Below the pieces are notes generated by a model that was not told the origin of the DNA, made no database searches, and was given only the letters and a program-made list of their open reading frames with translations. Positions 7,197 to 20,000 of a stretch of 20,000 nt of DNA are shown piece after piece. Each line of letters starts with the position of its first letter. Positions within the stretch are counted from its first letter, which is position 1. The position numbers were made by a program, and so were the translations under genes. The DNA comes from an uncultured virus (IMG/VR IMGVR_UViG_3300037424_001060) (Duplodnaviria > Heunggongvirae > Uroviricota > Caudoviricetes): the IMG/VR virus record IMGVR_UViG_3300037424_001060; one strand, written 5' to 3'.

Positions 7197-7502
7197 CTAT
7201 CCCTTTCTGAAGATTGGCTTTTTGTGTACCTTAACTCTATCACACTTTAGGGGATTGTCAAATTCTTTTCCGAAATCCCGGTGAACCAAGTTAGCGACCA
7301 CCATGTTCTCTTCGAGAATCCGTAAAGACTCTTTGGCCCATAATTCAGGCACAAGACAGTCATAGGGATGCGCAAGCGGTGCCACCAATGGGGCAGACGC
7401 TAATACCTCTTTGGTGGGGGTGCTTCCACCAAACACAGGGAGCGGCAGTGCCATTGCTGACACTGCCGCTCCAATCACCCTAAGAAACGATCGTCGCTGC
7501 AT
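7197..7502 (-). CDS. Twin-arginine-signal protein fused to a major-capsid-protein-like N-terminal fragment
   Basis: MQRRSFLRVIGAAVSAMALPLPVFGG (RRxFL plus h-region), then VPELWAKESLRILEENMVVANLVHRDF...DRVKVHKKPIF, resembling the N-terminus of P22-coat-like capsid proteins. Confidence 0.7.
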   Translation of the reverse strand: MQRRSFLRVIGAAVSAMALPLPVFGGSTPTKEVLASAPLVAPLAHPYDCLVPELWAKESLRILEENMVVANLVHRDFGKEFDNPLKCDRVKVHKKPIFRKG

Positions 7503-7506
7503 GTTG

Positions 7507-8262
7507 TTAGATACAGCCAATCATACTGCGAAACAGATTCGACAACCCACTCTCGGTTCCACCGTTAACCGGCTGTTCCTCGGCCGCTACATCCCGAACA
7601 ACAGCGTCCAGCAGAGCAGGGCTGAGCGAGTGAGGGCTAATGTCCCCCTCATTCAACAGCACATAGTTCGAGGCTGCCACAACTGCACCGTGCGGAATGG
7701 GCGCGGACGCCGGGGCGATTACCCCGAAGTGCTTCAGGAACGCCTCTGCCGGGCTGTCCAGAGTGCCGAGAGTGGTGTTGGACGGGATGCCCAGATTGTC
7801 AGCGTCCAGGTCCACGTTCGCCGTGGTCACGGTCATGTAGGCACCGTTAACCGTGGCACCGTTGGCCGTGATTGTGGCGTCGTTCGCCGTCAGGTTGCCG
7901 GTCAGAGCCACATCCACATCACCCGCATTGTAAGTCGCGATGACTGACGAGCCGTCCAGGGCCGTATCAACTGCGGTCTGAATAGCGGCTTCCGCAGCGT
8001 CGTACGCAATGTTGCCGGTCGTGACCGACACGCCATACATCGGGAAACCAATCGTGATCGTGAAATTCCCAGAACTGATCGTATCAGTATGGTTGGGAAT
8101 AACAGCGACGTGTGAAGCCGCCGCGTATGGAGCCGCGAGGGTGGGGTCAGCGATAGTCTGCAAAGCAACTAACTCGTTGTAGACGTGCCGTCCCGGACCC
8201 TTGTCAATCGTGCTACTGATGTTCTTCGAGTTCGCCAGTAGCGTTGCAATAACACCTGCCAT
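7507..8262 (-). CDS. Ala/Thr/Asp-rich probable structural or surface protein
   Basis: Strong SD GGAGGT. Contains GNFTITI...TTGNIAYDAAEAAIQTAVDTAL, resembling a beta-rich repeat of phage tail and surface proteins. Almost no Lys/Arg in the core. Confidence 0.75.
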   Translation of the reverse strand: MAGVIATLLANSKNISSTIDKGPGRHVYNELVALQTIADPTLAAPYAAASHVAVIPNHTDTISSGNFTITIGFPMYGVSVTTGNIAYDAAEAAIQTAVDTALDGSSVIATYNAGDVDVALTGNLTANDATITANGATVNGAYMTVTTANVDLDADNLGIPSNTTLGTLDSPAEAFLKHFGVIAPASAPIPHGAVVAASNYVLLNEGDISPHSLSPALLDAVVRDVAAEEQPVNGGTESGLSNLFRSMIGCI

Positions 8263-8326
8263 GAACAAATACCTCCAGAAAAATGTAACTTCCTTGTCGA
8301 GTTTAAGCGCCCGCCAAGGACGTTAT

Positions 8327-8563
8327 TTACCTAAAGAAACCCAACACAAACCGAATCGCAAAGATGCCGATAGCACCTTGGTACCACGTCAGCGCCGGCA
8401 TTTCCGTGCTTGGCACCAGGAAAATATTCCAGCACCACGCTAACACAATGCCGCCGATACACATAGCAATAATGTTCAGCATCATGATGAGTAGCACGCC
8501 CAAACATCCGGCTAGAACTACCTCAGCTTCATTTGGTTTTGACACATTTGTCCCCTTATGCAA
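8327..8563 (-). CDS. Small membrane protein (start may be GTG at 8545)
   Basis: Two hydrophobic segments, with WNIFLVP...LTWYQGAIGIFAI. Confidence 0.7.
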   Translation of the reverse strand: MHKGTNVSKPNEAEVVLAGCLGVLLIMMLNIIAMCIGGIVLAWCWNIFLVPSTEMPALTWYQGAIGIFAIRFVLGFFR

Positions 8564-9821
8564 TGTCGTTCATCATGTCAATCCGATACCGACGCGGCCC
8601 GGACCATTCGTACTCGCACCGAAGTTTCACGGGCAGTCTCCAAGTGATGCCATACTTCCTGTTGACCCCGTGAATCAACTGGGAAGGTTCTGTGAACCCG
8701 CCCAGCGAATTGTACGAGTACGCATCACTTGCCGGCCACGCGCCATTGATGACCATTTCTCCATTGACTTCCGTTGTGTTTCCGGGCCGGTGGAAGTGAC
8801 CGCAGCAGAAATATCGCGGTTGTACGCCATGCTGTACTGTGTTCAGGGCCAGCATGCGATGCCGACGTTTTTCCAGGCCGTACCACGGAATTCCCAAGCT
8901 GCTCTTAATGTCGTCGCCGTGGAAGATATGGAACCCGACGCCGTCGATATCGACGTTCGCAGAGAATGAGTTTGGGATGTGGAAGCTGACGTTATCACAG
9001 TCGCGGAGATTCATCTCGGCGACCTTGGCAATCATGTAGTCCCAGTTATCGTGCGCCCCCAGATAGTCCTTCTTAGTCGAACGCCTACCATGGTTTCCGG
9101 GGACGTAGATGATGTTCACCTGCCCAAAGTAAGGGGCCAAGTCCCGGAACATCAGGCTGTGCAGTTGACCAATTGCGAAGGAATTCTTGAACGCGTTCCT
9201 GAAATAACTGCGGCTGGTATGGCCGTGAATCTCCCCGCTTGTATGGTCGCCGTAGGCGAGCACCGTGAGGCTGGGGAAATGGTACTGCGGGGCGAGAGTC
9301 TGCTGGGTCCACTTGATAATCGTATCGACGTACTTCTCGGCCCGGCAAATCGAAACCGGAAAGTTGTATGTCTCCAGCCCGCCGGTATCGGCCGGGGTGA
9401 CTATCTGGTCGTGGTGGCCATCACTGAGGTGCATCACAAGATGCTCTGTAATAGCTCCCTTTGTCTTGCCCGCCGTGGATCGAGCAGATGGCAGTGGTCG
9501 AAGCGGTTTGATACGGTCTTCCATCTCTTCCACAATCGCTGCGAACAGGCCTTGTGTCTTGGCCGCGTTCTTCAACTGTCTCTTTGAATCATCACGTTCC
9601 TGACGAAGGTGCTCAATCTCTGCCTTCAGGCGAAAGATTTCCGCCGATTCGTTGTCATCGCCGAGTGCTTCGCGCACTTCCTTGTGGACACGCCCGCACG
9701 TAATGTCGCTGATTACAGACCGGCTGCAACCATACTTTTCGCCTATCTCTTTCTGCGTGAGTTTGCCCTCACTCAGATCGGCAGTGATTCCTTTCAAGTC
9801 AGCCTCGCTAAGCTTTTTCAT
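8556..9821 (-). CDS. Calcineurin-like metallophosphoesterase with N-terminal HTH and coiled coil
   Basis: Motifs SDGH, YGDH, GNHGR, FHGD, GHFH. N-terminal HTH TQKEIGEKYGCSRSVISDI. SD GGAG before the ATG at 9821. Confidence 0.88.
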   Translation of the reverse strand: MKKLSEADLKGITADLSEGKLTQKEIGEKYGCSRSVISDITCGRVHKEVREALGDDNESAEIFRLKAEIEHLRQERDDSKRQLKNAAKTQGLFAAIVEEMEDRIKPLRPLPSARSTAGKTKGAITEHLVMHLSDGHHDQIVTPADTGGLETYNFPVSICRAEKYVDTIIKWTQQTLAPQYHFPSLTVLAYGDHTSGEIHGHTSRSYFRNAFKNSFAIGQLHSLMFRDLAPYFGQVNIIYVPGNHGRRSTKKDYLGAHDNWDYMIAKVAEMNLRDCDNVSFHIPNSFSANVDIDGVGFHIFHGDDIKSSLGIPWYGLEKRRHRMLALNTVQHGVQPRYFCCGHFHRPGNTTEVNGEMVINGAWPASDAYSYNSLGGFTEPSQLIHGVNRKYGITWRLPVKLRCEYEWSGPRRYRIDMMNDIA

Positions 9822-9822
9822 G

Positions 9823-11664
9823 CTATGCTCCAATGATCTTCGTTTCAGAAAAGGGGTGATTCGTCAAAATGTGTTCGACCGCTTGCTTGAAGTAGTCGTT
9901 CGTGTCGAACAGCGATTCCTTCAGGTTGACTCTGGCCAGATGGTCGCGCTGGCACGTCAACAAAACTGGCTTTTGGATGAGATCGGCAGCGTGGTTAATC
10001 AGCTCGCGTGGTGACTGGAAGTTGTTACTGTGCATTCCTATCCGCTCGTTCAACCACATACCCGCCTTGTTGTAGAACCGGTCGCCCACCAATGTGATGA
10101 ATGGTAGGCCCAGGTACAACGATTCTACCAACACGTTGTAGCAGCCGAAGGGGAACGAGTTGATGCTGAAGTCGTGCATCTCGGCGTTCTCCATGTAGTC
10201 GTAGTATTCCTGCTCAGTGTGCAGAGTGGCGTTCGGAAGCATCCGCAGAACTTCCTGCCGGAACGATGGAAGGGCCGCGTAGCGGTTCATGCCGGGCGAA
10301 CCGAACAGATGAAACTCGTGCTTTGGCGGAAGTTCAAAGCCGTTGCACACAGCGTTTTGCCTTCGCCTCTCCACCTCGTTGTTGATTTCGGCCAACAGTG
10401 TTAGCAGCGTGTAGTTGTATTTGTCCGGCCCCCACACGCAATTTACACGCACGATGCTGTCATCTTTGTAGTTGTGCTTGCGCTCGTAGGTTGGCCACGC
10501 CGGGTGCTGCCCCAGTCCCGGAATCAGGACCATTGTCTCAGCGTACTTGTCGGTGGATTCTTTCTCGACGTCGCCACCGATGAAGTAGTCAATCTCGCTG
10601 TTGTCACCTGAAGTATCGGGATGACCGTATCCCATGGCCTGGATGGGCGCGATGCGGCAGTTGCTCAGCCAGATGGATTCGTTCGACATACCGATGTCCG
10701 GGAAGTACACCATGTTGAATGAGTTGTCCTGCAAGCCGGGCGGGATGACCAGCTCACCATCCGGGCGGAAGTAGCAATTCATCACACTGGTGAAGTAGTC
10801 GGTGACGGCTGTGTCGGGCATCTTGTCATCGGTCCATACCAGATGCAAGTCGGCGTAGCCCAACAGTTGTTCGACCAGCGCGCCGGCCGACTTGTACACC
10901 GCGTGGTTGCGATGCCACTTGTTTGTGACGATGGCGATTTGAGGCTTCCCGTCTTGCGGTGTGTTGTTGAACGTCCATGTCTTCGCCTTCTTAAGGGCGC
11001 GGTTGATGATGCCTTTGCATCGGCGGGCGGCGTCGGGATTGATGTACGTGCAGGTGAAGTAGGTGCTGGTAACTTGGTGTGTGTATGGAGTCCACCTTTC
11101 ATCCATCTCTTGAATATGCCTGAACAAATTCTTCTGAATCCTGGATGTCGGCGAACTGAGCCCCAGTATGTAGGTGTTGTACCACATCGAAGAAATGATG
11201 GGGTCCAAGTCGAACAACTTCGACTGCGGAAGCTGTGCTTCGCAACGCGGGTTTTCCAGGAACAGTGCTTTAGGAAGATTCCCTTGTTGCAGCAGGGTTG
11301 CGGCCAACGCGGCGTCATTAGTTTGGAAGCCGGTCAATGCCACAAGATGCTGGAACACGTGTCCATACTGCACCATCGCGATGGCTTCCTTCAAGCCGGG
11401 CCGGAACTCTTCGTCCAGCAAAGCGGTGTATACCAGTTGAATGAATTGATTCAGATTCTTGATCGCCCCGATGCCCAGTTGCAGATAGTGGTGCCCCTCA
11501 AAGAACATCAGAAACTCAATGATGCTGGCCCACACCGCCGGGTCACGTTCCGCAATCGCCTTGGCGAAACGCGAGTAATTAACGGCCGGGATGTCTACGC
11601 GGGGGTCGGATGGCATCACAATCAATGCCGCATTCTTACCTTTCAAGTTCTGCCGTTTCTTCAT
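9823..11664 (-). CDS. HMW1C/NGT-like GT41 protein glycosyltransferase
   Basis: HAVYKS, VYFPDIGM, RIAPIQAMGYGHPDTS, IDYFI, YAETMVLIP and NSFPFGCYNVLVESLYLGLP mirror HMW1C/ApNGT and SPINDLY/OGT catalytic motifs. No evident TPR array. Confidence 0.85.
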   Translation of the reverse strand: MKKRQNLKGKNAALIVMPSDPRVDIPAVNYSRFAKAIAERDPAVWASIIEFLMFFEGHHYLQLGIGAIKNLNQFIQLVYTALLDEEFRPGLKEAIAMVQYGHVFQHLVALTGFQTNDAALAATLLQQGNLPKALFLENPRCEAQLPQSKLFDLDPIISSMWYNTYILGLSSPTSRIQKNLFRHIQEMDERWTPYTHQVTSTYFTCTYINPDAARRCKGIINRALKKAKTWTFNNTPQDGKPQIAIVTNKWHRNHAVYKSAGALVEQLLGYADLHLVWTDDKMPDTAVTDYFTSVMNCYFRPDGELVIPPGLQDNSFNMVYFPDIGMSNESIWLSNCRIAPIQAMGYGHPDTSGDNSEIDYFIGGDVEKESTDKYAETMVLIPGLGQHPAWPTYERKHNYKDDSIVRVNCVWGPDKYNYTLLTLLAEINNEVERRRQNAVCNGFELPPKHEFHLFGSPGMNRYAALPSFRQEVLRMLPNATLHTEQEYYDYMENAEMHDFSINSFPFGCYNVLVESLYLGLPFITLVGDRFYNKAGMWLNERIGMHSNNFQSPRELINHAADLIQKPVLLTCQRDHLARVNLKESLFDTNDYFKQAVEHILTNHPFSETKIIGA

Positions 11665-13015: not shown

Positions 13016-13396
13016 TTAGACTCTCCAAAGAGAGCCGAACAAGTCCTGGATGGACACCGGTCGATGGTCCGCGATTTCTCGCAGCGTCTCGAAACAATAC
13101 TCGCCCTGGTATAGCAGCTTGGCCTGCTCAAGTCCGTATTCCATACAGAAGGACTTTGTCGCAAAGTAGCCGATAGACTCGTCGTCTATACGAATGTCAT
13201 GCACCTTCCATGCCTCGTCGCAGAGCACCGACACAACATGATAGTCGTCCTCGCTATCGTGATGCCAGCTAAGATCGTTCAGCATCCTAATGATAGTGTC
13301 GGGAACGCCCTCGTTGGTTTCGTCGCTGGCGTAATAATGCACAGCACCTTCCACAGAAAGAACAGCGCATACGAAGTTGTTGTCTTCATTCATCAA
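13016..13396 (-). CDS. Hypothetical acidic protein
   Basis: SD AGGA; overlaps the helicase stop. Confidence 0.7.
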   Translation of the reverse strand: MMNEDNNFVCAVLSVEGAVHYYASDETNEGVPDTIIRMLNDLSWHHDSEDDYHVVSVLCDEAWKVHDIRIDDESIGYFATKSFCMEYGLEQAKLLYQGEYCFETLREIADHRPVSIQDLFGSLWRV

Positions 13397-15278
13397 AGAT
13401 TTCCTGTAGCTCGCCCAGAGTCATGGATTCTAACCGTCGGTTGTCTCGCAAAACAGCAAGGACTTTACGATCCGAGGACAGGTGAAACAAGTCCACGATC
13501 GTTGCCCCTTTATTCTCGTCAATGCCAGGGCGATGTATGCGGTCTTCGGCCTGCATGCGCGATTCTGGTGTGTAGTCGTTCGAATAAAATACGGCCATTC
13601 TCGATTCGGTGAGAGTGAGGCCCATACCGCCGGACGCGGGGTGGGCGACGAACGCCACACGCTCATTGTGCAGGTTGGCCCAGTAGTCCAGGGGCTTGAT
13701 ATCTCTATCAACTGGCTCCCCATCGTGCCGTAGAATTTTCCATCCGCGACCGTCAACTTTCACAACGTCCCAGCACTCGTTGTGGCACATCTTAACAATC
13801 TTGTCCACGGAGCCTTGGAAGCCGGCGAAGATAACAATTCGACCTTGATCTTCATTCTCTTCCAGTAGGTCACGAATCGCTTCATCCTTGGGGCACTTCA
13901 GTTCCTTCGTCTCGCGCACCATGTGGGGTACCTTGCCCGTGCCCTCGCACTTCTCGCAGGTAGCCATTTCCTTAATGGGGTCGCAGGTTAGGTCCGTGTA
14001 GTCCCACTGTTCGCAAACTCCAGAGCCCTTGCACACCGGGCACTCTTCCTCGCCTTCCTGTTTCTCTCGATACTGGAATCCGTCCGACAATTCACGAAGC
14101 CAAGTGATTCCCTGGATGGCTGATTCAGCGGCGGATACAAGAGCCTTGGCAACACGCTTTAGAGTCGGGGTTGGCTCAAGAGTAACCTCCCGATAGATCT
14201 TATCGGGAATATCCAGGCAGTCCTTTTTCTTCAGGACCAGAACCAGACCAGCCAACCGTTCGTGCAGATAGGCCACTTCGTTGATTGACTCGACCCACTC
14301 GTGTGAATTTTCGCCAACGCCAAAGATGTCATCCATCTCGTGCTTCGGGTGCTCGGCCAACTCTCCGCACACATTGCACTTACGCGAGTCGTCGCGCCAC
14401 GTGACACGCTTCCAGAAGTCGCCTTGATCGGCGGTTTTCTTCTGTTCAAAGATGGCCAGTCTCCATTCAAAGGCTTTCGCCGAGCCTTCCTTCAAGAAGC
14501 CGGGAGCTACCACTTCACACTGCGACCACCAGTCCACCGGGGATTTTGGCGCAGGCGTGCCAGACATGCAAATGACATAGCCGTCCCAGCCATATTCGTT
14601 GCGGATGGCGTCGGCTACCCACATGCCGGCCTTTGTTCGCTTGGCACTGGAAGATTTTAACCGAGATGACTCGTCAAAGATGATGCCCTTCGGAGCGGGC
14701 ATACCGGCTTCCCACTGCTCTACTTCGATGCGGAGCCGTTCATAGGTCATGACGCGGGGTTGTACTCGGAGCCCCCACTTGTCCCACTCGCGCTCGACAG
14801 CAGCGATACCGGACTTGGGAGCAACATACCACCAGTCCAGGACACCCGATTGTTCCATTAACTCGATGGCTGACAGTGATTTACCAACACCCATTTCAGC
14901 CGCCAGGAGCTGATAGTGGTAGGTCAACATGCAGTCTGTCATCCGCTTCTGGTGGTCAAACAGCGGGCGACTGTACCCCCAATTTCGCAGGGGTTGTTCC
15001 CAGTTGGCGTACGGGTTGCCACCGGTCATGAAGTCGATCTGGAAGTTGTTTCGACAACAATCTTCCACCGACCACAGCTTACGTCCATCCCCGTCAATGC
15101 GCTGGTGGAACCGGCTCCCACGCATGGCCTTAATCTCGTCCTTCAGCTCGAAGGGTGTCGTGTTATGCCTACCGTGTGTATGCCACAAGATGCGGCCGTC
15201 CACACGCTCAAGATCAACAGGGTAGTAGTATTGAGTACCCTTCTTTGTCTCTTTGATTATGCGGATGGATTCAATCAT
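13386..15278 (-). CDS. SNF2-like superfamily 2 DNA helicase
   Basis: Walker A EMGVGKS, Walker B IIFDESS, motif III SGTP, motif V SGGMGLTL, motif VI QAEDRIHRPG; Cys-rich inserts. Confidence 0.93.
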   Translation of the reverse strand: MIESIRIIKETKKGTQYYYPVDLERVDGRILWHTHGRHNTTPFELKDEIKAMRGSRFHQRIDGDGRKLWSVEDCCRNNFQIDFMTGGNPYANWEQPLRNWGYSRPLFDHQKRMTDCMLTYHYQLLAAEMGVGKSLSAIELMEQSGVLDWWYVAPKSGIAAVEREWDKWGLRVQPRVMTYERLRIEVEQWEAGMPAPKGIIFDESSRLKSSSAKRTKAGMWVADAIRNEYGWDGYVICMSGTPAPKSPVDWWSQCEVVAPGFLKEGSAKAFEWRLAIFEQKKTADQGDFWKRVTWRDDSRKCNVCGELAEHPKHEMDDIFGVGENSHEWVESINEVAYLHERLAGLVLVLKKKDCLDIPDKIYREVTLEPTPTLKRVAKALVSAAESAIQGITWLRELSDGFQYREKQEGEEECPVCKGSGVCEQWDYTDLTCDPIKEMATCEKCEGTGKVPHMVRETKELKCPKDEAIRDLLEENEDQGRIVIFAGFQGSVDKIVKMCHNECWDVVKVDGRGWKILRHDGEPVDRDIKPLDYWANLHNERVAFVAHPASGGMGLTLTESRMAVFYSNDYTPESRMQAEDRIHRPGIDENKGATIVDLFHLSSDRKVLAVLRDNRRLESMTLGELQEIFDE

Positions 15279-15529
15279 GGGGTGATGATTTTCTTCTCGA
15301 TAGTGCGAATTTCGGCAACAGCACGATGAAGGCGGTTGGCGTGTTCCGTCAAAGCGTCACACAAACCTTTGATGCTACGCTGTCCCCACACCACGCGTAT
15401 GTTTCGGGGGCTGACGATATCATCGGCCAAATTAGCCAATTTGGTTTCGACAAGTTGCGAATTGTAATTGAGAAGCGAAATGATATCGTTCAACTGCTTA
15501 CTGAGTAATTGGTTCGTATTGGATTCCAT
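15275..15529 (-). CDS. Hypothetical helical protein (probable start MESNT)
   Basis: SD GAGGT before the ATG at 15529; ATGA overlap with the helicase start. Confidence 0.55.
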   Translation of the reverse strand: MESNTNQLLSKQLNDIISLLNYNSQLVETKLANLADDIVSPRNIRVVWGQRSIKGLCDALTEHANRLHRAVAEIRTIEKKIITP

Positions 15530-15698
15530 TGTCACCTCGGAATGGTGTTGTGTGATCGTCGTCGCCGTCAAGTATTTCCGATGGGATACCGCCGGGGAAC
15601 GCTTTGCACCGGGGCGGGTTCGAGAAATCAATGAAGTGCTTGCAAGTGCTGCAAGCGGGGCTTACCGGGTGACTGAAATTGTTTGGATCGAACGGCAT
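15498..15698 (-). CDS. Small Cys/His protein, candidate ART immunity or partner protein
   Basis: CSTCKH...CKAFPGGIPSEILDGDDDHTTPFRGDNGIQYEP: CxxCxH / CxAFPxGIP / H / GDNGI pattern. SD GAGGA and its own promoter. Confidence 0.8.
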   Translation of the reverse strand: MPFDPNNFSHPVSPACSTCKHFIDFSNPPRCKAFPGGIPSEILDGDDDHTTPFRGDNGIQYEPITQ

Positions 15699-15716
15699 CG
15701 CTTTTTCCTCTATTCA

Positions 15717-15744
15717 AGTATAGCACTTGAACGCAACTTGTCAA
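15717..15744 (-). promoter_or_regulatory. Strong sigma70 promoter overlapped by two palindromes
   Basis: TTGACA (15744-15739), 16-bp spacer, extended -10 TGC-TATACT (TATACT at 15722-15717). Palindromes AACTTG-T-CAAGTT over the -35 and TTCAAGT-N5-ACTTGAA over the -10. Confidence 0.8.
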
Positions 15745-15752
15745 GTTAATTC

Positions 15753-16499
15753 CTACATTTCGTCCATGAAAATATCCCAGGTTCCTCTGGTACGATTATA
15801 TTTCTTCGATTTTACCATGAACCGTGTGCCCGACCTAAACAAGACTTCATTCTCTTCCGAGAAGTTTGAAACCTTCTCAATCCATTTCCCCGTCTTAGAT
15901 TTGATTACAAAGCGGGTTTGTCCCTCGTCTGCCCCCTCGAACGGTCGATACGACGGTGTGGAACTTCGACTGGTGCTAACAAACTCTTTCAGAACAACGG
16001 GTTTACCAGGGACGTAGGCGTCCGCAAGTGTGGCGCTACGATCATTTATTGTTCGGTATACCTGCCCTTCGTAGTTTCTTACTTTGTCCAGCGATGCGTT
16101 CAATTCATTCTTGAATGCCCCGGCCCGCTTCACATAGTCCGCGATTACGGCATCACTTTCTCCTGACAGTTCTAATGTCTGCTTGAATCCTTTCGGGTCG
16201 TATATCGAACGATTCAGTTTCTCGGCGTTCAATCCTTTGAATCTCTCACCGCCCATTATGTGCCCACCAGAGTAGGCTGTTATCGGCTGTATATCGGCAC
16301 CTGGAAGATGCTCGACATTTTTTCCGGGGCCGGTCAACACTCCACCTGGATTAAGAACAGGGTCTTCGGAATCACTGTGATAGCCGGGATTTCTAACAGC
16401 CGGCGGAACCTTCTCCACGGCACCGCCACCGGCACCGCCACCACCGCCACCAGATCTACCTCCGCCGCCGCCTCCGCCAGTTCCGCTACCCTTGGGCAT
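15753..16499 (-). CDS. R-S-E class mono-ADP-ribosyltransferase (VIP2/Alt/Mod-like) with a poly-Gly N-terminal leader
   Basis: YEGQVYR (catalytic R), EFVSTSRS (STS), SNFSEENEVLFRSGTRF (ExE). Start MPKGSGTGGGGGGG at 16499 with SD GAGGT. Confidence 0.88.
   Translation of the reverse strand: MPKGSGTGGGGGGGRSGGGGGGAGGGAVEKVPPAVRNPGYHSDSEDPVLNPGGVLTGPGKNVEHLPGADIQPITAYSGGHIMGGERFKGLNAEKLNRSIYDPKGFKQTLELSGESDAVIADYVKRAGAFKNELNASLDKVRNYEGQVYRTINDRSATLADAYVPGKPVVLKEFVSTSRSSTPSYRPFEGADEGQTRFVIKSKTGKWIEKVSNFSEENEVLFRSGTRFMVKSKKYNRTRGTWDIFMDEM
16420..16490. repeat. Low-complexity (CCG/CCA)n tract encoding the poly-Gly leader
   Basis: caccgccaccggcaccgccaccaccgccacc...ccgccgccgcctccgcc encodes GSGTGGGGGGGRSGGGGGGAGGG. 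Confidence 0.8.
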
Positions 16500-17097
16500 C
16501 AGACACCTCGCGTGACGCGTTTCGAGCGTCGGGGACATTTACAAGGTCACACAGGCTGCAAAAGTCTCTGACCAATGGCCCGCCACCATACACCAGGAAG
16601 TTGAGCTGGTTGCCACAGGCTCGCTCGGTGGCTTGATCTAATTGTTCTCTCAGCATGTCGATCTGATCGTCGCATGCGGAGGTTGAATAGGATGGCCAAC
16701 CGTCCGGGACACCTAGCAAATTGATGCCCGCGAACTTCGGGGCGACATTCATATCGACGAAGATATTCATGCCGGCCGACTGCCAGAACCGAGCCATCCA
16801 TCGCTTCATGTAAATACGCCAGATACCGACCGCCATTGGCATTTGATCGTCAGTGGTGTAGTTGGCCTCACAGCAATTGTAGGCCTTCGTCTTCAGGACA
16901 GCATCTGGGTGCTTCCACAGTGCCGTGAACTTCTCGTCGTCGACATAGAAGTGCCATGTGCCTCGCATGCGGGATTTCCGTGAGACGGAACCCCAGCCGC
17001 GCACCGGCAAATCCACAAACGTGCCATGTCTCTCGAACATGAGCATCGGGATTTCCAGGTGGTTGTCTGTCGGAAACAAGCAATCAGGCACTCTCAT
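16486..17097 (-). CDS. DUF4417-family protein
   Basis: DNHLEIPML, WHFYVDDEKF, ANYT, IYMKRWMARFWQSAG, GVP and LVYGG match the DUF4417 pattern as I recall it. Confidence 0.8.
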   Translation of the reverse strand: MRVPDCLFPTDNHLEIPMLMFERHGTFVDLPVRGWGSVSRKSRMRGTWHFYVDDEKFTALWKHPDAVLKTKAYNCCEANYTTDDQMPMAVGIWRIYMKRWMARFWQSAGMNIFVDMNVAPKFAGINLLGVPDGWPSYSTSACDDQIDMLREQLDQATERACGNQLNFLVYGGGPLVRDFCSLCDLVNVPDARNASREVSDAQG

Positions 17098-17606
17098 TTG
17101 CTGTACTCCAGATAGAACATACCATCCTGTTCGCGTGTCTGCTTGGCCTCAAATATCGCGGTCAGTCCGAGTCGTTTGAATTCCGCGAAAACACCATTGT
17201 ATACATGCCTAACCTCACGGGTAACATCCTTCTGGCAGCCGCGTAATACAGCGGCTTTCCATTGTAGCAGGTTGCCGGCGATGAGAGCCATTTTGATGTT
17301 TCTGGCCTGTGTCCCTACCAGCACGGCGGGCATGCCGGCCAGCTCAAGAATCTCTGCAAAATCCATATCGTCGGCGGCGATAACAAACCCGGCGTGAAAC
17401 ATATTCAGATATGGGATCACGGCTGCGGCTGACGGGCGAAGTCCCGCGTCTTTCATGGCAGCCACGCACAGCATGTGATTCAGGGGAGGCTCGAAGCCTG
17501 CACTGTCCGCAGCTTCAGCCAAGTTGCGCTGAAATGCTTGCCTACCCAGAGTCAGGAACTTTCCTAAGTCCAGGTTCGAGAATTGAACCAGCGCAACTCC
17601 ATTCAT
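17094..17606 (-). CDS. Hypothetical protein, possibly degenerate ThyX-like fold
   Basis: C-terminal IAGNLLQWKAAVLRGC...TREVRHV resembles ThyX TGNxRxW...LR...QxEIR. The RHRx7S motif is absent. Confidence 0.55.
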   Translation of the reverse strand: MNGVALVQFSNLDLGKFLTLGRQAFQRNLAEAADSAGFEPPLNHMLCVAAMKDAGLRPSAAAVIPYLNMFHAGFVIAADDMDFAEILELAGMPAVLVGTQARNIKMALIAGNLLQWKAAVLRGCQKDVTREVRHVYNGVFAEFKRLGLTAIFEAKQTREQDGMFYLEYSK

Positions 17607-18031
17607 TCATTTATCCCCGACCACTTGTTGTCAAAATCCGCCAACGCTTTTCCAGGATTTGGTCCGCGACCTATCAGTGCCCAAGACTCGGTACCATATG
17701 ACGCTACCCACTCCAGTCCATCATGCTTCAGGATAACGGCGTACTGCCGGTGAGGGCACAATTGCTGCTGAGCCTGTAGCGTAATCGCTTGCTCCGTTGC
17801 CAGCTTCTGCATCGCGAGTGCTTTTTGTAACTGGCGGGAAGTGTCCATATCGGAGAAAGATTCCGGTGCCGTGCTCAACAGCGAGGACAGAACTAAGGAC
17901 AGCCGCTCCAACTGAGTCTGGTCCGACAGGCTCTTCAACTGCATATGTTGCAGAGATGTTTCGCAAGCCTGCGGTGACAGCCAGCGTGCCAGCCGTATCA
18001 ACAATACTGAGAGATACCCCATTGTTTGCAC
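17603..18031 (-). CDS. Hypothetical phage protein (true start may be ATG at 17848)
   Basis: C-terminal HDGLEWVASYG...GRGPNPGKALADFDNKW looks protein-like; ATGA overlap with the next gene. Confidence 0.65.
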   Translation of the reverse strand: MQTMGYLSVLLIRLARWLSPQACETSLQHMQLKSLSDQTQLERLSLVLSSLLSTAPESFSDMDTSRQLQKALAMQKLATEQAITLQAQQQLCPHRQYAVILKHDGLEWVASYGTESWALIGRGPNPGKALADFDNKWSGINE

Positions 18032-18121: not shown

Positions 18122-18823
18122 TTAGCGCGCCCGCTTCGGCTTAGCCGGCGCTTCGGGGTCTTCCTCAACCTTCTGGATACCAGATTGCGGGTTGCGGAAT
18201 TTTTCCATCTCTTTGGCAATCGCGGCGTCCGATGGCACATCTGCTGAATCAAACGGCTCGGAGCACTTGCTAATCACCGGAACATGCCATCCCCACTCAG
18301 GCATCTTTTTGTAGCGAATACCCAGAGTGGCCGGGGTTGGCACCCCGCCATTTTCCTCGGTCGGCAGGAACGGACGCAGCTTACCGGCCTCGTTACGACC
18401 GGACAAGTTGCCGAAGAACAGCTCATACATCTTCGCGGTGCTCCGCTCGATGACGAGGAAGCTGGGGCCCCACATGCAGCCCGTGTTCTTCGGGGCGTTC
18501 TTGATTCGCTGGAACTCAGGGTCGTTGACCTTGTACACAGCGACAATCGCTTCGCGATCGGATACGTCCAATGCCTTGGCGCGGGCGTCCAACGGAATAA
18601 TGTCGATGGTCACGCCAAGGTCGAGAATCTCTTCTCCACCCGGCTGGGGCACGCCCCAGTGGCCGGCACCAATCTTGCCGGTGTCGACATACTTTCCCTT
18701 GGTGATGAGCTGCAAACGAGGAAGGAAGTCGGAGCCTTGACTGACGTCAGAGACTTCGGTGAGCACATCAGCGCGCACGGCGGGAAGGAAGTTGGATTTG
18801 AACGGTGTGAGTTCATTTGACAT
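18122..18823 (-). CDS. Probable phage single-stranded DNA-binding or recombination protein
   Basis: SD GGAG before MSNEL. FLPRLQLI N-terminal motif, aromatic beta-strands (WGPSFLV, WGWHVPV), charged tail, a dedicated terminator, and a replication-module context. Confidence 0.55.
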   Translation of the reverse strand: MSNELTPFKSNFLPAVRADVLTEVSDVSQGSDFLPRLQLITKGKYVDTGKIGAGHWGVPQPGGEEILDLGVTIDIIPLDARAKALDVSDREAIVAVYKVNDPEFQRIKNAPKNTGCMWGPSFLVIERSTAKMYELFFGNLSGRNEAGKLRPFLPTEENGGVPTPATLGIRYKKMPEWGWHVPVISKCSEPFDSADVPSDAAIAKEMEKFRNPQSGIQKVEEDPEAPAKPKRAR

Positions 18824-19766
18824 GGTGTTCTCCAAGTACAGAGTAATCAGGTTTCAGTTTATCAGATACCAATGTTGTAACAAGACGTGTTCTAAATTCG
18901 CTCTTTTCCATCTCAGTTAAGTATGCGCACGGTGCCTCCGCAATCTTGTTCAAGCGTTTCTCTATAGTTAGCGGGTCTATTTTCAGCATCCATGCCAAGC
19001 AGGCTTTCCATCCATCGAGCGGTGTGAGCGCCCCGGTGGCGTCCATGACGGCCTTCGCTTGTTCAAACCCGTCCAACTCTGTAATCAGTGCGTTAAGCGT
19101 CCTCATCTTCGGAGTTATACCGCACAGACGTTCTTCTTGTTTCCTCTTCAGGAGAAAGGCGTCATAATCTACTCGTGCTTCTCGCACTCGCGTTATGAAC
19201 GCGATAGGTACCATGGACGACGCGTCGTCAATGAACTTCTCCTGCATGTCCATCGGAAGCGAACCCAACGCAATGGCCGACGTCAATGGAATCTCGCCGT
19301 AGTTCACCGGCTTGATTGCTCGGTCACACAGGTTGTTCAACTTCAGTATTGTCTTGATCCACGTCGGAGACTTGTCTACCTTGGCGCTCAGGTCGTAGAG
19401 CGTCATACCATCGTCGATAAATTTCTTCAGTCTCCGGGCGTACTCATATTTGCGTGTGTCCTCTGGCCGGACGGCGTTGGCCTTCAGTTGTATCAATGCG
19501 GCTTCGTCGTCGGTCATGGCGCGAACCAGACACGGCATCGTTTCGAGCGAGGCGACTATTGCTGCTTCACGCCTGTGCTCTCCCTCCACCACCTCGAACA
19601 TGTACGAGTCCATTATAGGCCGAACCAGGATCGGCTGCAATATGCCATCTACCTTGATGGACTCGATCATTTCCTGAAACTGAACGGAGGTCTTTCGCAC
19701 AGGGCGAAGAGCTAACTTCGGCGGCATTAGAAGTCGGATCGGAATGTTTTTTAGTTCGTCGTTCAT
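18813..19766 (-). CDS. parB: ParB/Srx N-terminal domain plus HTH protein
   Basis: SIKVDGILQPILVRP...EVVEGEHRREAA...MPCLV (GxxR) and HTH MTLYDLSAKVDKSPTWIK. Probable start MNDEL at 19766. Confidence 0.88.
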   Translation of the reverse strand: MNDELKNIPIRLLMPPKLALRPVRKTSVQFQEMIESIKVDGILQPILVRPIMDSYMFEVVEGEHRREAAIVASLETMPCLVRAMTDDEAALIQLKANAVRPEDTRKYEYARRLKKFIDDGMTLYDLSAKVDKSPTWIKTILKLNNLCDRAIKPVNYGEIPLTSAIALGSLPMDMQEKFIDDASSMVPIAFITRVREARVDYDAFLLKRKQEERLCGITPKMRTLNALITELDGFEQAKAVMDATGALTPLDGWKACLAWMLKIDPLTIEKRLNKIAEAPCAYLTEMEKSEFRTRLVTTLVSDKLKPDYSVLGEHHVK

Positions 19767-20000
19767 TTGTCTACTACTATATCGCCTCATTCGGCGCGAT
19801 TGTCGCAACAAATGTCGAAATAATCCGAAAAGAATTCGGCGCACGATAATTATGATTATGTCAATTGATACTAACCTGGGGAGCCCCCTCATCCCACTCC
19901 CCAGTGGGGTTTTCTGCTAACCTCTTTCCACATAACGAGTTAACCTCGCCGCTAAAAGAGGGAGGGGAGGGGAGCTGGAAAAAGAGTTAGCCATATTGAA

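Follow-up and report, generated by a model that had tools for sequence, protein, structure and literature searches.

In phage T4, an N-terminal capsid-targeting sequence directs Alt and the internal proteins into the head, from which they are injected with the DNA. The signal is a short peptide carried by unrelated proteins, one of them an arginine-specific ADP-ribosyltransferase (ART); it works via the scaffolding core, and the prohead protease cuts it off. A second arrangement is that of the MuF polymorphic toxins (PF04233/PF06152), in which a constant N-terminal module is joined to swappable C-terminal effectors. Passages of Jamet et al. 2017 (PMC5576092) describe MuF as the vehicle that places these effectors in the head, and ARTs and other effectors fused to MuF are thought to be packaged there and injected, according to passages of Iyer et al. 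2022 (PMC9503650) and Zhang et al. 2012 (PMC3482391). Here we analyse a locus in a 20,000-nucleotide (nt) stretch of DNA from an uncultured virus of the Caudoviricetes (IMG/VR record IMGVR_UViG_3300037424_001060), referred to throughout as the window. In this locus a gene of the DUF4417 family is followed by an ART gene that begins with a glycine-rich leader, or tag, and by a small gene for a 66-amino-acid (aa) protein with a Cys3-His signature. We find that the window genes are one instance of a widespread phage cassette, in which DUF4417 is followed by one to three tagged genes.

This cassette is a further form of a known design, a constant carrier with exchangeable effectors: like the MuF toxins, it combines a constant N-terminal part with swappable C-terminal effectors. 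The likeness extends to the toxin domain being followed by an open reading frame (ORF) of small size, here the ART and the 66-aa ORF, and the Cys3-His family follows both MuF-type and Gly-tagged genes. In contrast to MuF, the constant part of the cassette is a tag of 7-25 residues and not a folded portal-binding domain, the tag is tied to a separate enzyme-like gene, DUF4417, and tagged genes occur in tandem arrays. The capsid-targeting sequence of T4 is the functional model that we favour for the tag, a likeness of proposed function; unlike the T4 signal, the tag comes linked, at the level of the genes, with DUF4417 and ParB. The window ART resembles the C3/VIP2/Alt-type R-S-E ARTs in matching the Pfam families ART and ADPrib_exo_Tox and in its Arg, Ser-Thr-Ser and Glu-x-Glu motifs, but its N-terminal delivery part is a Gly tag and not a PAAR domain, a MuF domain or a signal peptide.

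The DUF4417 domain of the window is also the domain found in the ParB-DUF4417 fusions of other phages; in the window the two are encoded separately, with ParB three genes upstream. Such fusions are listed as phage-enriched and of unknown function in a recent preprint (bioRxiv 10.1101/2025.10.10.680097), the relevant passages of which do not mention tagged downstream genes, and the portions of PMC8066415 and PMC5478533 that name the DUF4417 domain only list it in gene tables. Neither DUF4417 nor a Gly tag is mentioned in the passages of PMC3482391 on glycine-rich sequences, the phage head and MuF, or in those of PMC5512222 on ParB. A search of full-text literature, covering the articles themselves as distinct from their supplementary tables, found no account of the DUF4417 and Gly-tag pairing.

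Glycine-rich tags behind DUF4417

An alignment-based scan of viral contigs returned 295 relatives of DUF4417, and the best 80 of these 295 were taken as loci. We scored a start as Gly-rich when at least three Gly fell within residues 2-13, allowing alternative starts in both the test and the control set; the controls were 583 further ORFs in these DUF4417 loci, each with 100 aa or more. A same-strand ORF was present behind DUF4417 in 77 of the 80 loci. Of these 77 ORFs, 54 had a Gly-rich start, in comparison to 89 of the 583 controls (Fisher 8e-23). A stricter rule was passed by 46 unique tagged proteins, and M-[G/A]-[R/K]-x-S-G-G is their tag consensus. At position 2 the residue is G (35 proteins) or A (11), as demanded by the selection rule, position 3 is R (29) or K (15), and S, G and G occupy positions 5, 6 and 7 in 33, 40 and 38 proteins, respectively.

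The pairing was also recovered without reference to DUF4417. A blind scan of all viral contigs, made with one codon family for MGRNSGG, gave 49 matches, 41 of which open ORFs of at least 60 aa. DUF4417 lies within 1.5 kb upstream and on the same strand for 40 of these 41 ORFs, and the single exception has only 497 upstream bases. Low complexity or chance as the source of the Gly-rich start is ruled out by the control ORFs and the blind scan. MGRNSGG also opens eight short ORFs, which are cited here, as are other retrieved loci, by their L numbers: 34 aa in L271, L273, L275, L290, L297 and L312, and 14-22 aa in L277 and L313 (e.g. MGRNSGGAPGIDIN...). A DUF4417 hidden Markov model (HMM) gave no matches upstream of these eight (14-34 aa), three of which offer less than 1.5 kb of searchable sequence. 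These short ORFs may be free tag peptides or chance matches.

At loci retrieved with an ART profile, DUF4417 was found beside all five ARTs whose tag is truly N-terminal (L003, L190, L191, L211 and L212) and beside none of the 72 untagged ones, the comparison being made after setting aside 21 edge-truncated ORFs. With a crude Gly count, which takes in internal and unrelated starts, DUF4417 accompanied 5 of the 10 ARTs scored as Gly-rich. An earlier note on this DNA had given, as a rule, that DUF4417 genes often precede proteins with Gly-rich N-termini; the rule held among the next genes, in the blind scan and at the ART loci.

Five of the six cultured phages examined (Bacteroides phage Versailles, Javan23, Mycobacterium phages Finemlucis and D29, and Gordonia phage KatherineG) carry a tagged ORF at or near the end of DUF4417, and carriers of the tag span phages of Bacteroidota, Bacillota and Actinomycetota hosts. 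A predicted ParB-type domain is often fused to DUF4417 or encoded near it. In Versailles, Javan23 and KatherineG the cassette lies directly upstream of the terminase genes, and a published gene table (in PMC8066415) likewise places the DUF4417 cassette of Streptococcus phage A25 just upstream of its terminase genes.

In D29 (L189, 1063-2097) and KatherineG (L269, 1245-2132), the frame of gene 2 is open far upstream of the annotated start. An upstream ATG gives MGGRGS... followed by about 80 Gly-rich residues, which overlap the acidic tail of gene 1 in another frame; in D29, the DUF4417 homology stops exactly at base 1063. Judged from these frames, the annotated starts of gene 2, at 1318 in D29 (versus 1063) and at 1482 in KatherineG (versus 1245), probably cut off the tag, and many records may therefore miss it.

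Payloads behind the tag and in MuF proteins

The payloads behind the tag are diverse and, by their predicted domains, mostly toxin-like. Among 60 unique first downstream ORFs we found two ARTs of different kind (L112, and L149 with an ADPrib_exo_Tox match at 6.8e-21). Four ORFs belong to phrog_36422 and have a weak CdiA_C likeness, only the one in L188 (2.1e-6, 28.3 bits) being above the CdiA_C cut-off. A further 11 belong to phrog_16681, whose members carry an HExxH motif (e.g. HELAH in Versailles), two match part of phrog_19194, and 38 have no PHROG match. Three of the 60 are other genes, encoding an HNH endonuclease, a terminase-small-like protein and a DNA-binding protein. Gene 2 of KatherineG encodes a VIP2-like ART (1.4e-21) and gene 2 of D29 (gp2) carries DUF3626 (6.7e-8); in a portion of PMC10586128, gene 2 of cluster A15 Gordonia phages is annotated as a VIP2-like ART. 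Tagged genes are often paired in tandem, and one locus has an HNH gene between DUF4417 and the tagged gene. The earlier note had proposed that a constant Gly leader carries interchangeable C-terminal effectors. This is what the neighbourhoods contain: Gly-rich next genes have variable C-terminal domains, and the types seen behind the tag include ARTs, HExxH peptidase-like proteins, CdiA-CT-like proteins, DUF3626 and unclassified types.

A conserved acidic protein is encoded after tagged HExxH genes, in Versailles (L001, 7203-7466) and as the second downstream ORF of L142, L153, L157, L161, L169, L173, L182 and L185. It has about 73-87 aa, reads roughly MKKIELS..E...I..QL.GE..., and is unrelated to the Cys3-His protein. 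It may be a payload-specific partner.

The same payload families were observed in the proteins, most of them MuF, encoded just upstream of the small Cys3-His gene. From its 129 relatives in viral contigs 80 loci were taken, and in 78 of these a same-strand gene ends at the start of the small gene. Phage_Mu_F was detected in 39 of the 78 upstream genes at an expectation value (E) of at most 0.001, in 29 of them above the curated cut-off, and Phage_min_cap2 in one more. An HExxH motif is present in 37 of the 78 (one cluster of 29 and 8 further proteins), and Pfam finds an ART-type domain in 15, of which 13 fall into two ART clusters of the C-terminal 230 residues. A C-terminal cluster of 10 proteins makes up a third, unassigned type. 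Of 151 candidate ORFs behind DUF4417, 36 were matched by an HMM built from the C-terminal HExxH domain of these upstream (mostly MuF) proteins (E as low as 3e-20), and DUF3626 is found both in D29 gene 2 and in the protein upstream of the small gene in L047. ART, HExxH and DUF3626 payloads are common to Gly-tagged genes and to the (mostly MuF) genes upstream of the small gene, and this sharing with MuF head proteins is our main reason for reading the tag as a delivery signal. In the window ART itself, Pfam found no MuF domain, and in PHROG the match is confined to the ART end of phrog_595.

Two side observations concern the upstream genes. In L042, L061 and L071 a portal domain and a C-terminal HExxH-bearing region share one ORF (947-1083 aa), with a sub-threshold MuF match in L061 and L071. 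In L073, L074 and L076, inteins lie within MuF genes.

The cassette in the window

All cassette genes of the window are on the minus strand, and gene order and coordinates are given as window positions. The features of the locus and its neighbours are as follows.

18813-19892, minus strand: ParB-like gene, 359 aa, three genes upstream of DUF4417; Pfam ParB_N 3.4e-14
16486-17097, minus strand: DUF4417 gene, 203 aa, stand-alone, without a ParB domain; predicted beta/alpha barrel; Pfam PF14386
15753-16499, minus strand: leader-tagged ART gene, 248 aa plus stop; Pfam; identical to the public gene call P0001
16422-16499, minus strand: Gly-rich N-terminal leader of the ART, codons 1-26, reading MPKGSGTGGGGGGGRSGGGGGGAGGG
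15753-16142, minus strand: predicted ART catalytic region, about residues 120-248
16053-16055, minus strand: ART R149
15969-15977, minus strand: ART S175-T-S177
15846-15854, minus strand: ART E216-N-E218
15717-15744, minus strand: promoter-like site, TTGACA-16-TATACT with extended -10 TG; consensus match only
15498-15698, minus strand: gene for the 66-aa Cys3-His protein (C16, C19, C31, H49; AFPxGIP; GDNGIQ[FY]); phrog_33375, E 3e-9
15275-15529, minus strand: next gene after the small gene, probably 84 aa from the ATG at 15529 with GAGGTG ahead; coiled-coil-like composition
13386-15278, minus strand: SNF2-type helicase, 630 aa

Along the minus strand the order is ParB-like gene, three genes of no assigned function, DUF4417, ART, small gene, 84-aa gene, SNF2-type helicase, exonuclease and DNA polymerase, and the region is a phage replication module transcribed from the minus strand. 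The arrangement of DUF4417, tagged ART and small gene that the earlier note had described is present as such. The window ART starts 14 nt inside the end of the DUF4417 gene and on the same strand, which is the position of the tagged gene in the cassette. The 84-aa gene overlaps the 3' end of the 66-aa gene by 32 nt, and its product matched no family above the cut-off in a Pfam search; we treat it as context and, at most, as a candidate member of the cassette. The helicase has matches only at about 24-25% identity, in Pseudomonas and Pelagibacter phages. An HNH endonuclease gene lies near the DNA polymerase gene at 514-864 on the minus strand (phrog_2255, 5.4e-23). Searches of 50,697 phage records gave no match for the DNA of 15200-17700 and, by tblastn, none for the ART protein.

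Relatives of the locus were found among viral and metagenomic contigs. The viral contig L003, of much lower GC (guanine plus cytosine) content, runs from ParB through three genes to DUF4417, the tagged ART and the small gene, and on through one gene to the helicase. Its helicase (7272-9872) has 866 aa compared to 630 aa in the window; judged by eye, the extra segment is intein-like with an HNH-like insert. In the metagenome set, DUF4417, ART and small gene are all present in L191; the contig of L190 breaks off after DUF4417 and ART, and that of L192 shows ART and small gene, both agreeing with the window order so far as visible. Within the same lineage, tagged proteins of other kinds, 145-303 aa long, also fill the slot behind DUF4417: L109 has two of about 292 aa, L110 one of 190 aa, L111 one of 303 aa and L113 one of 145 aa; in L113 the helicase gene comes directly next. 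In L211 (1237-2535) and L212 (148-1494), a tagged ART (MGGRGSYSKVGGG..., 198 aa) is placed upstream of DUF4417, so the order of the pair is reversible.

The ADP-ribosyltransferase and its leader

The longest ORF of the ART spans 15753-16538 (261 aa). The start at 16499, which reads MPKGSG, is that of the public protein P0001, and GAGG lies 6 nt upstream of it. From these coordinates the ART start overlaps the DUF4417 stop (16486-16488) by 14 nt, the overlap that the earlier note had given. The protein matches PF01129 (ART; 2.1e-6, 27.7 bits, cut-off 22.3) and PF03496 (ADPrib_exo_Tox; 8.6e-6, 25.7 bits, cut-off 23.4), the matches spanning residues 141-260 of the 261-aa ORF. R149, S175-T176-S177 and E216-N217-E218 occur in this order, and R149, S175, S177, E216 and E218 are invariant in the alignment of 17 family members; the R-STS-ExE motifs are intact, as had been claimed. 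The closest solved chain by sequence is 6drh_B (E 0.0046, 19.8 bits), deposited as "PAAR repeat-containing protein", which we take to be the type VI effector Tre1 of Serratia. These motifs suggest that the payload of the window belongs to the arginine-type (R-S-ExE) mono-ADP-ribosyltransferases; such an enzyme would use NAD+ to modify proteins of the host.

The ART opens with MPKGSGTGGGGGGG, and the leader of codons 1-26 is an exact match to the one quoted in the earlier note. The window tag reads M-P-K-G-S-G-T-G-G followed by poly-Gly; K3, S5 and G6 fit the consensus M-[G/A]-[R/K]-x-S-G-G, and P2 and T7 do not. A scan of the viral contigs with the single ART sequence returned no relatives, and an alignment-based scan did find them. 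The resulting family of 17 full-length members (235-282 aa) has a Gly-rich start in 17 of 17. When 1.84 billion representative proteins were searched by phmmer with the ART domain, 796 matched at E <= 0.001. Gly-rich starts were present in 51 of the 163 ART-related sequences inspected (the best 150 of the 796 plus family members), and distant ART subfamilies among them open with MGRGGGG, MAKGGSGGGG or MGGRG.

The GC dip of the ART gene is real but modest. The 60-nt values cited in the earlier note, 43.3% in the ART domain and 60.0% in polA, are exact; those two windows were picked, and at gene scale the payload part of the ART has 48.9% GC compared to 53.5% for the window, about 5 points lower. 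Its third-position GC (0.52) is the lowest of ten genes compared, the other nine ranging from 0.57 to 0.74, and the catalytic part falls within the lowest 4.6% of 390-nt windows by GC.

The DUF4417 protein

The window DUF4417 protein matches PF14386 at E 7.7e-26 (91.1 bits, cut-off 28.9) over profile positions 3-173 of 183, and DUF4417 as a family matches 449 of 50,697 phage records. Residues conserved across relatives are Y51, D53/D54, E77, N79, R99-W100, R103, D115 and the G171-G173 motif. An AlphaFold2 model made from 39 aligned sequences (predicted local distance difference test, pLDDT, 92.3; predicted template modelling score, pTM, 0.89) consists of alternating strands and helices, and the predicted fold is a beta/alpha barrel. 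Y51, D53/D54, E77, N79 and D115 sit along successive strands of the model. This arrangement of conserved acidic and polar residues along a confidently modelled barrel is that expected of an active site, and DUF4417 is inferred to be an enzyme. Foldseek against the PDB gave no matches at E <= 0.001, the weak rows being TIM-barrel enzymes, and the DUF4417 profile gave one chance-level match to PDB sequences (E 0.29, an unrelated enzyme).

The domain lies in the C-terminal half of all 28 long DUF4417 ORFs tested. ParB_N stands ahead of it in 16 of these 28, as it also does in Versailles.

The 66-aa Cys3-His protein

The small protein that the earlier note had picked out by its Cys and His residues belongs to a real conserved family, with nine database relatives in addition to the 129 from viral contigs. 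C16, C19, C31, H49, AFPxGIP and GDNGIQ are invariant in the alignment. A survey of its downstream neighbours used 62 sequences (60 ORFs and two fused forms), and the usual place of the small gene is between MuF and scaffold, prohead-protease, major-capsid or neck genes. In L105 (4908-6842) the Cys3-His domain is fused N-terminally to a prohead-protease-like protein (644 aa), and in L048 (4992-9179) to a 1395-aa protein. A Pfam search found no family for the small protein. Its structural model has a pLDDT of 74.7, with one of five models above 57; Foldseek gave no matches against the PDB at E <= 10 and only unnamed phage clusters in the atlas. The idea that it is a cut-down MuF domain was rejected, as hhalign against 16 MuF domains gave a probability of 0.1%.

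By analogy with polymorphic-toxin immunity proteins, the 66-aa metalloprotein could bind and neutralise the ART in the producing cell, as the earlier note had proposed. The small gene does stand directly behind the ART in the window, L003, L191 and L192, and it has a near-consensus promoter-like site of its own. ART-type domains in 15 of 78 upstream neighbours are in our judgement, made with no background rate, far above chance, and small ORFs after MuF toxins are proposed as immunity genes in passages of PMC5576092 (89.4% vs 25.5%). However, the adjacency that this role predicts is not specific to ARTs: members of the family follow HExxH payloads (37/78) more commonly than ARTs (15/78 by Pfam, 13 by clustering), and the third type accounts for 10/78. 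At ART-seeded loci the small gene is scarce. The viral set has a single case of it behind the ART, L003, and the metagenome set has four, L191, L192, L213 and L227; most retrieved ART genes lack it, including the tagged ARTs of L211 and L212. The position in the head module and the fusion to a prohead protease in L105 also speak against an antidote. With at least three unrelated C-terminal domains standing upstream of one family, the small protein is unlikely to be an antidote specific to ARTs.

The relationships within the family point the same way. In a weakly resolved tree of 86 members and 72 alignment columns, the type of the neighbouring payload changes at least 24 times, in comparison to a shuffle mean of 42.7, and at least 10 of these changes are for ART; payload labels are more clustered than in the shuffles, as kinship alone would give. 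The window clade is nearest to proteins behind HExxH payloads. We also considered that the ART and the small gene had been transferred together from a MuF-ART locus. This was not supported, as the closest outside ARTs (L015, L021, L004, L006 and L009) have no small gene and the nearest outside relatives of the small protein follow HExxH payloads.

The small gene was found behind a tagged gene in one of the 80 DUF4417 loci, that one being the window's own relative, and the small protein lies outside the general DUF4417 cassette. It is probably a zinc-binding companion of such payload genes in general. It may act as a chaperone, a packaging aid or a general restraint, and a family-wide, payload-independent role fits it better than cognate immunity. 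These data weigh against the usual assumption that a small ORF after a phage toxin encodes its cognate immunity protein.

The earlier note had also given the small gene its own promoter. The minus strand does contain, at 15744-15717, a site reading TTGACA-16-TATACT with an upstream TG, placed in the 54 nt that separate the small gene from the ART stop; it matches the consensus at 11 of 12 positions. The region as a whole holds two such sites, compared to a shuffle mean of 2.3, and there is no excess.

Discussion

We favour the reading that DUF4417 and its tagged, swappable payloads form a cassette for tag-dependent loading of effectors for delivery, and give it about an even chance of being right. 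The Gly tag would be a handling signal that is read or processed by DUF4417, as the linkage of the genes suggests. More tentatively, the tag may steer its payload to the virion or to the phage DNA, to be delivered to the next cell. It would thereby do for its payloads what the MuF head-protein domain does for the same families in other phages, and the ART of the window would then ADP-ribosylate host proteins with NAD+. On these points the earlier note fared unevenly: the linkage of tag and DUF4417 and the swappable effectors stand, and the ART-specific immunity does not.

Several observations weigh against this reading. Of the genes next to DUF4417, 23 of 77 have no Gly-rich start, and we found no tagged genes in Microcystis phage Mic1, the sixth cultured phage examined. 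The linkage counts overstate the number of independent events, because one metagenome (sample code 3300045988) or related phages supplied many of the loci in the DUF4417 set of 80, and many matches of the blind scan. The window's own tag is off consensus, with Pro at position 2, and the consensus of its ART family, MGSGxS, has no basic residue 3. The role of the small protein is a guess, its model being moderate and without a structural match. The coupling of DUF4417 to the tag is proposed from gene linkage, and the tagged proteins are putative virion components. Finally, the cassette of the window lineage lies among replication genes (ParB, SNF2 helicase, exonuclease and DNA polymerase) and not among packaging genes, and therefore an enzyme acting inside the infected cell fits this setting as well as a packaged one.

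The last point underlies the explanation that survives best among the alternatives, which we consider unlikely though deserving of serious attention. The ART would be made together with the replication genes and would modify host proteins in the same infection, by analogy with ModA and ModB of T4, with nothing packaged; the Gly-rich start would serve as a flexible tether, or as an assembly tag for a DUF4417/ParB complex on DNA. The location of the cassette between ParB and the SNF2 helicase is consistent with this, as is a search of four related phage records (51-74% complete) in which no MuF family was found, and the linkage of tag and DUF4417 would fit any functional coupling, not only packaging. 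However, the payload families are those fused to head-packaged MuF proteins, and in other phages the cassette adjoins the terminase genes. A mere linker, moreover, would not preserve a seven-residue N-terminal motif across phages of Actinomycetota, Bacillota and Bacteroidota.

We regard as distinctly improbable that DUF4417 and ParB form a nucleic-acid-modifying enzyme of the TGT/DpdA transglycosylase type, with the tagged proteins as substrates or co-substrates. The free N-terminal Gly/Ala of the tag, or its Ser5, might for example be covalently joined to phage DNA or a nucleotide, and the proteins would travel with the genome. The barrel predicted for DUF4417 is compatible with such a fold, but the weak Foldseek rows do not set TGT/DpdA enzymes apart from unrelated TIM barrels, and there is no sequence signal, the best PDB profile match (E 0.29) being to an unrelated enzyme. 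A toxin-immunity pair of the ART and the 66-aa protein is, given the neighbours and the tree of the small-protein family, very improbable.

Returning to tag-dependent delivery, a bolder version of it is speculative and in our view rather doubtful. DUF4417 could be the enzyme of a new protein-handling pathway, which would recognise the free N-terminal Gly/Ala-Arg/Lys-x-Ser-Gly-Gly, chemically couple or process the tag, possibly join the payload to the genome together with ParB, and so ship tagged proteins (ARTs, peptidases, nucleases) to the next host. If true, phages would possess a programmable "tag and ship" system that differs from MuF fusion and from the capsid-targeting sequence of T4, and an action of DUF4417 on the chemistry of the tag would be categorically new. 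If the pairing is a route of delivery or processing, DUF4417, a family common in phages, would gain a testable role. The seven-residue signature would then flag candidate phage effectors that have no known domain, and the tag would offer an easy means of putting proteins of choice into phage particles.

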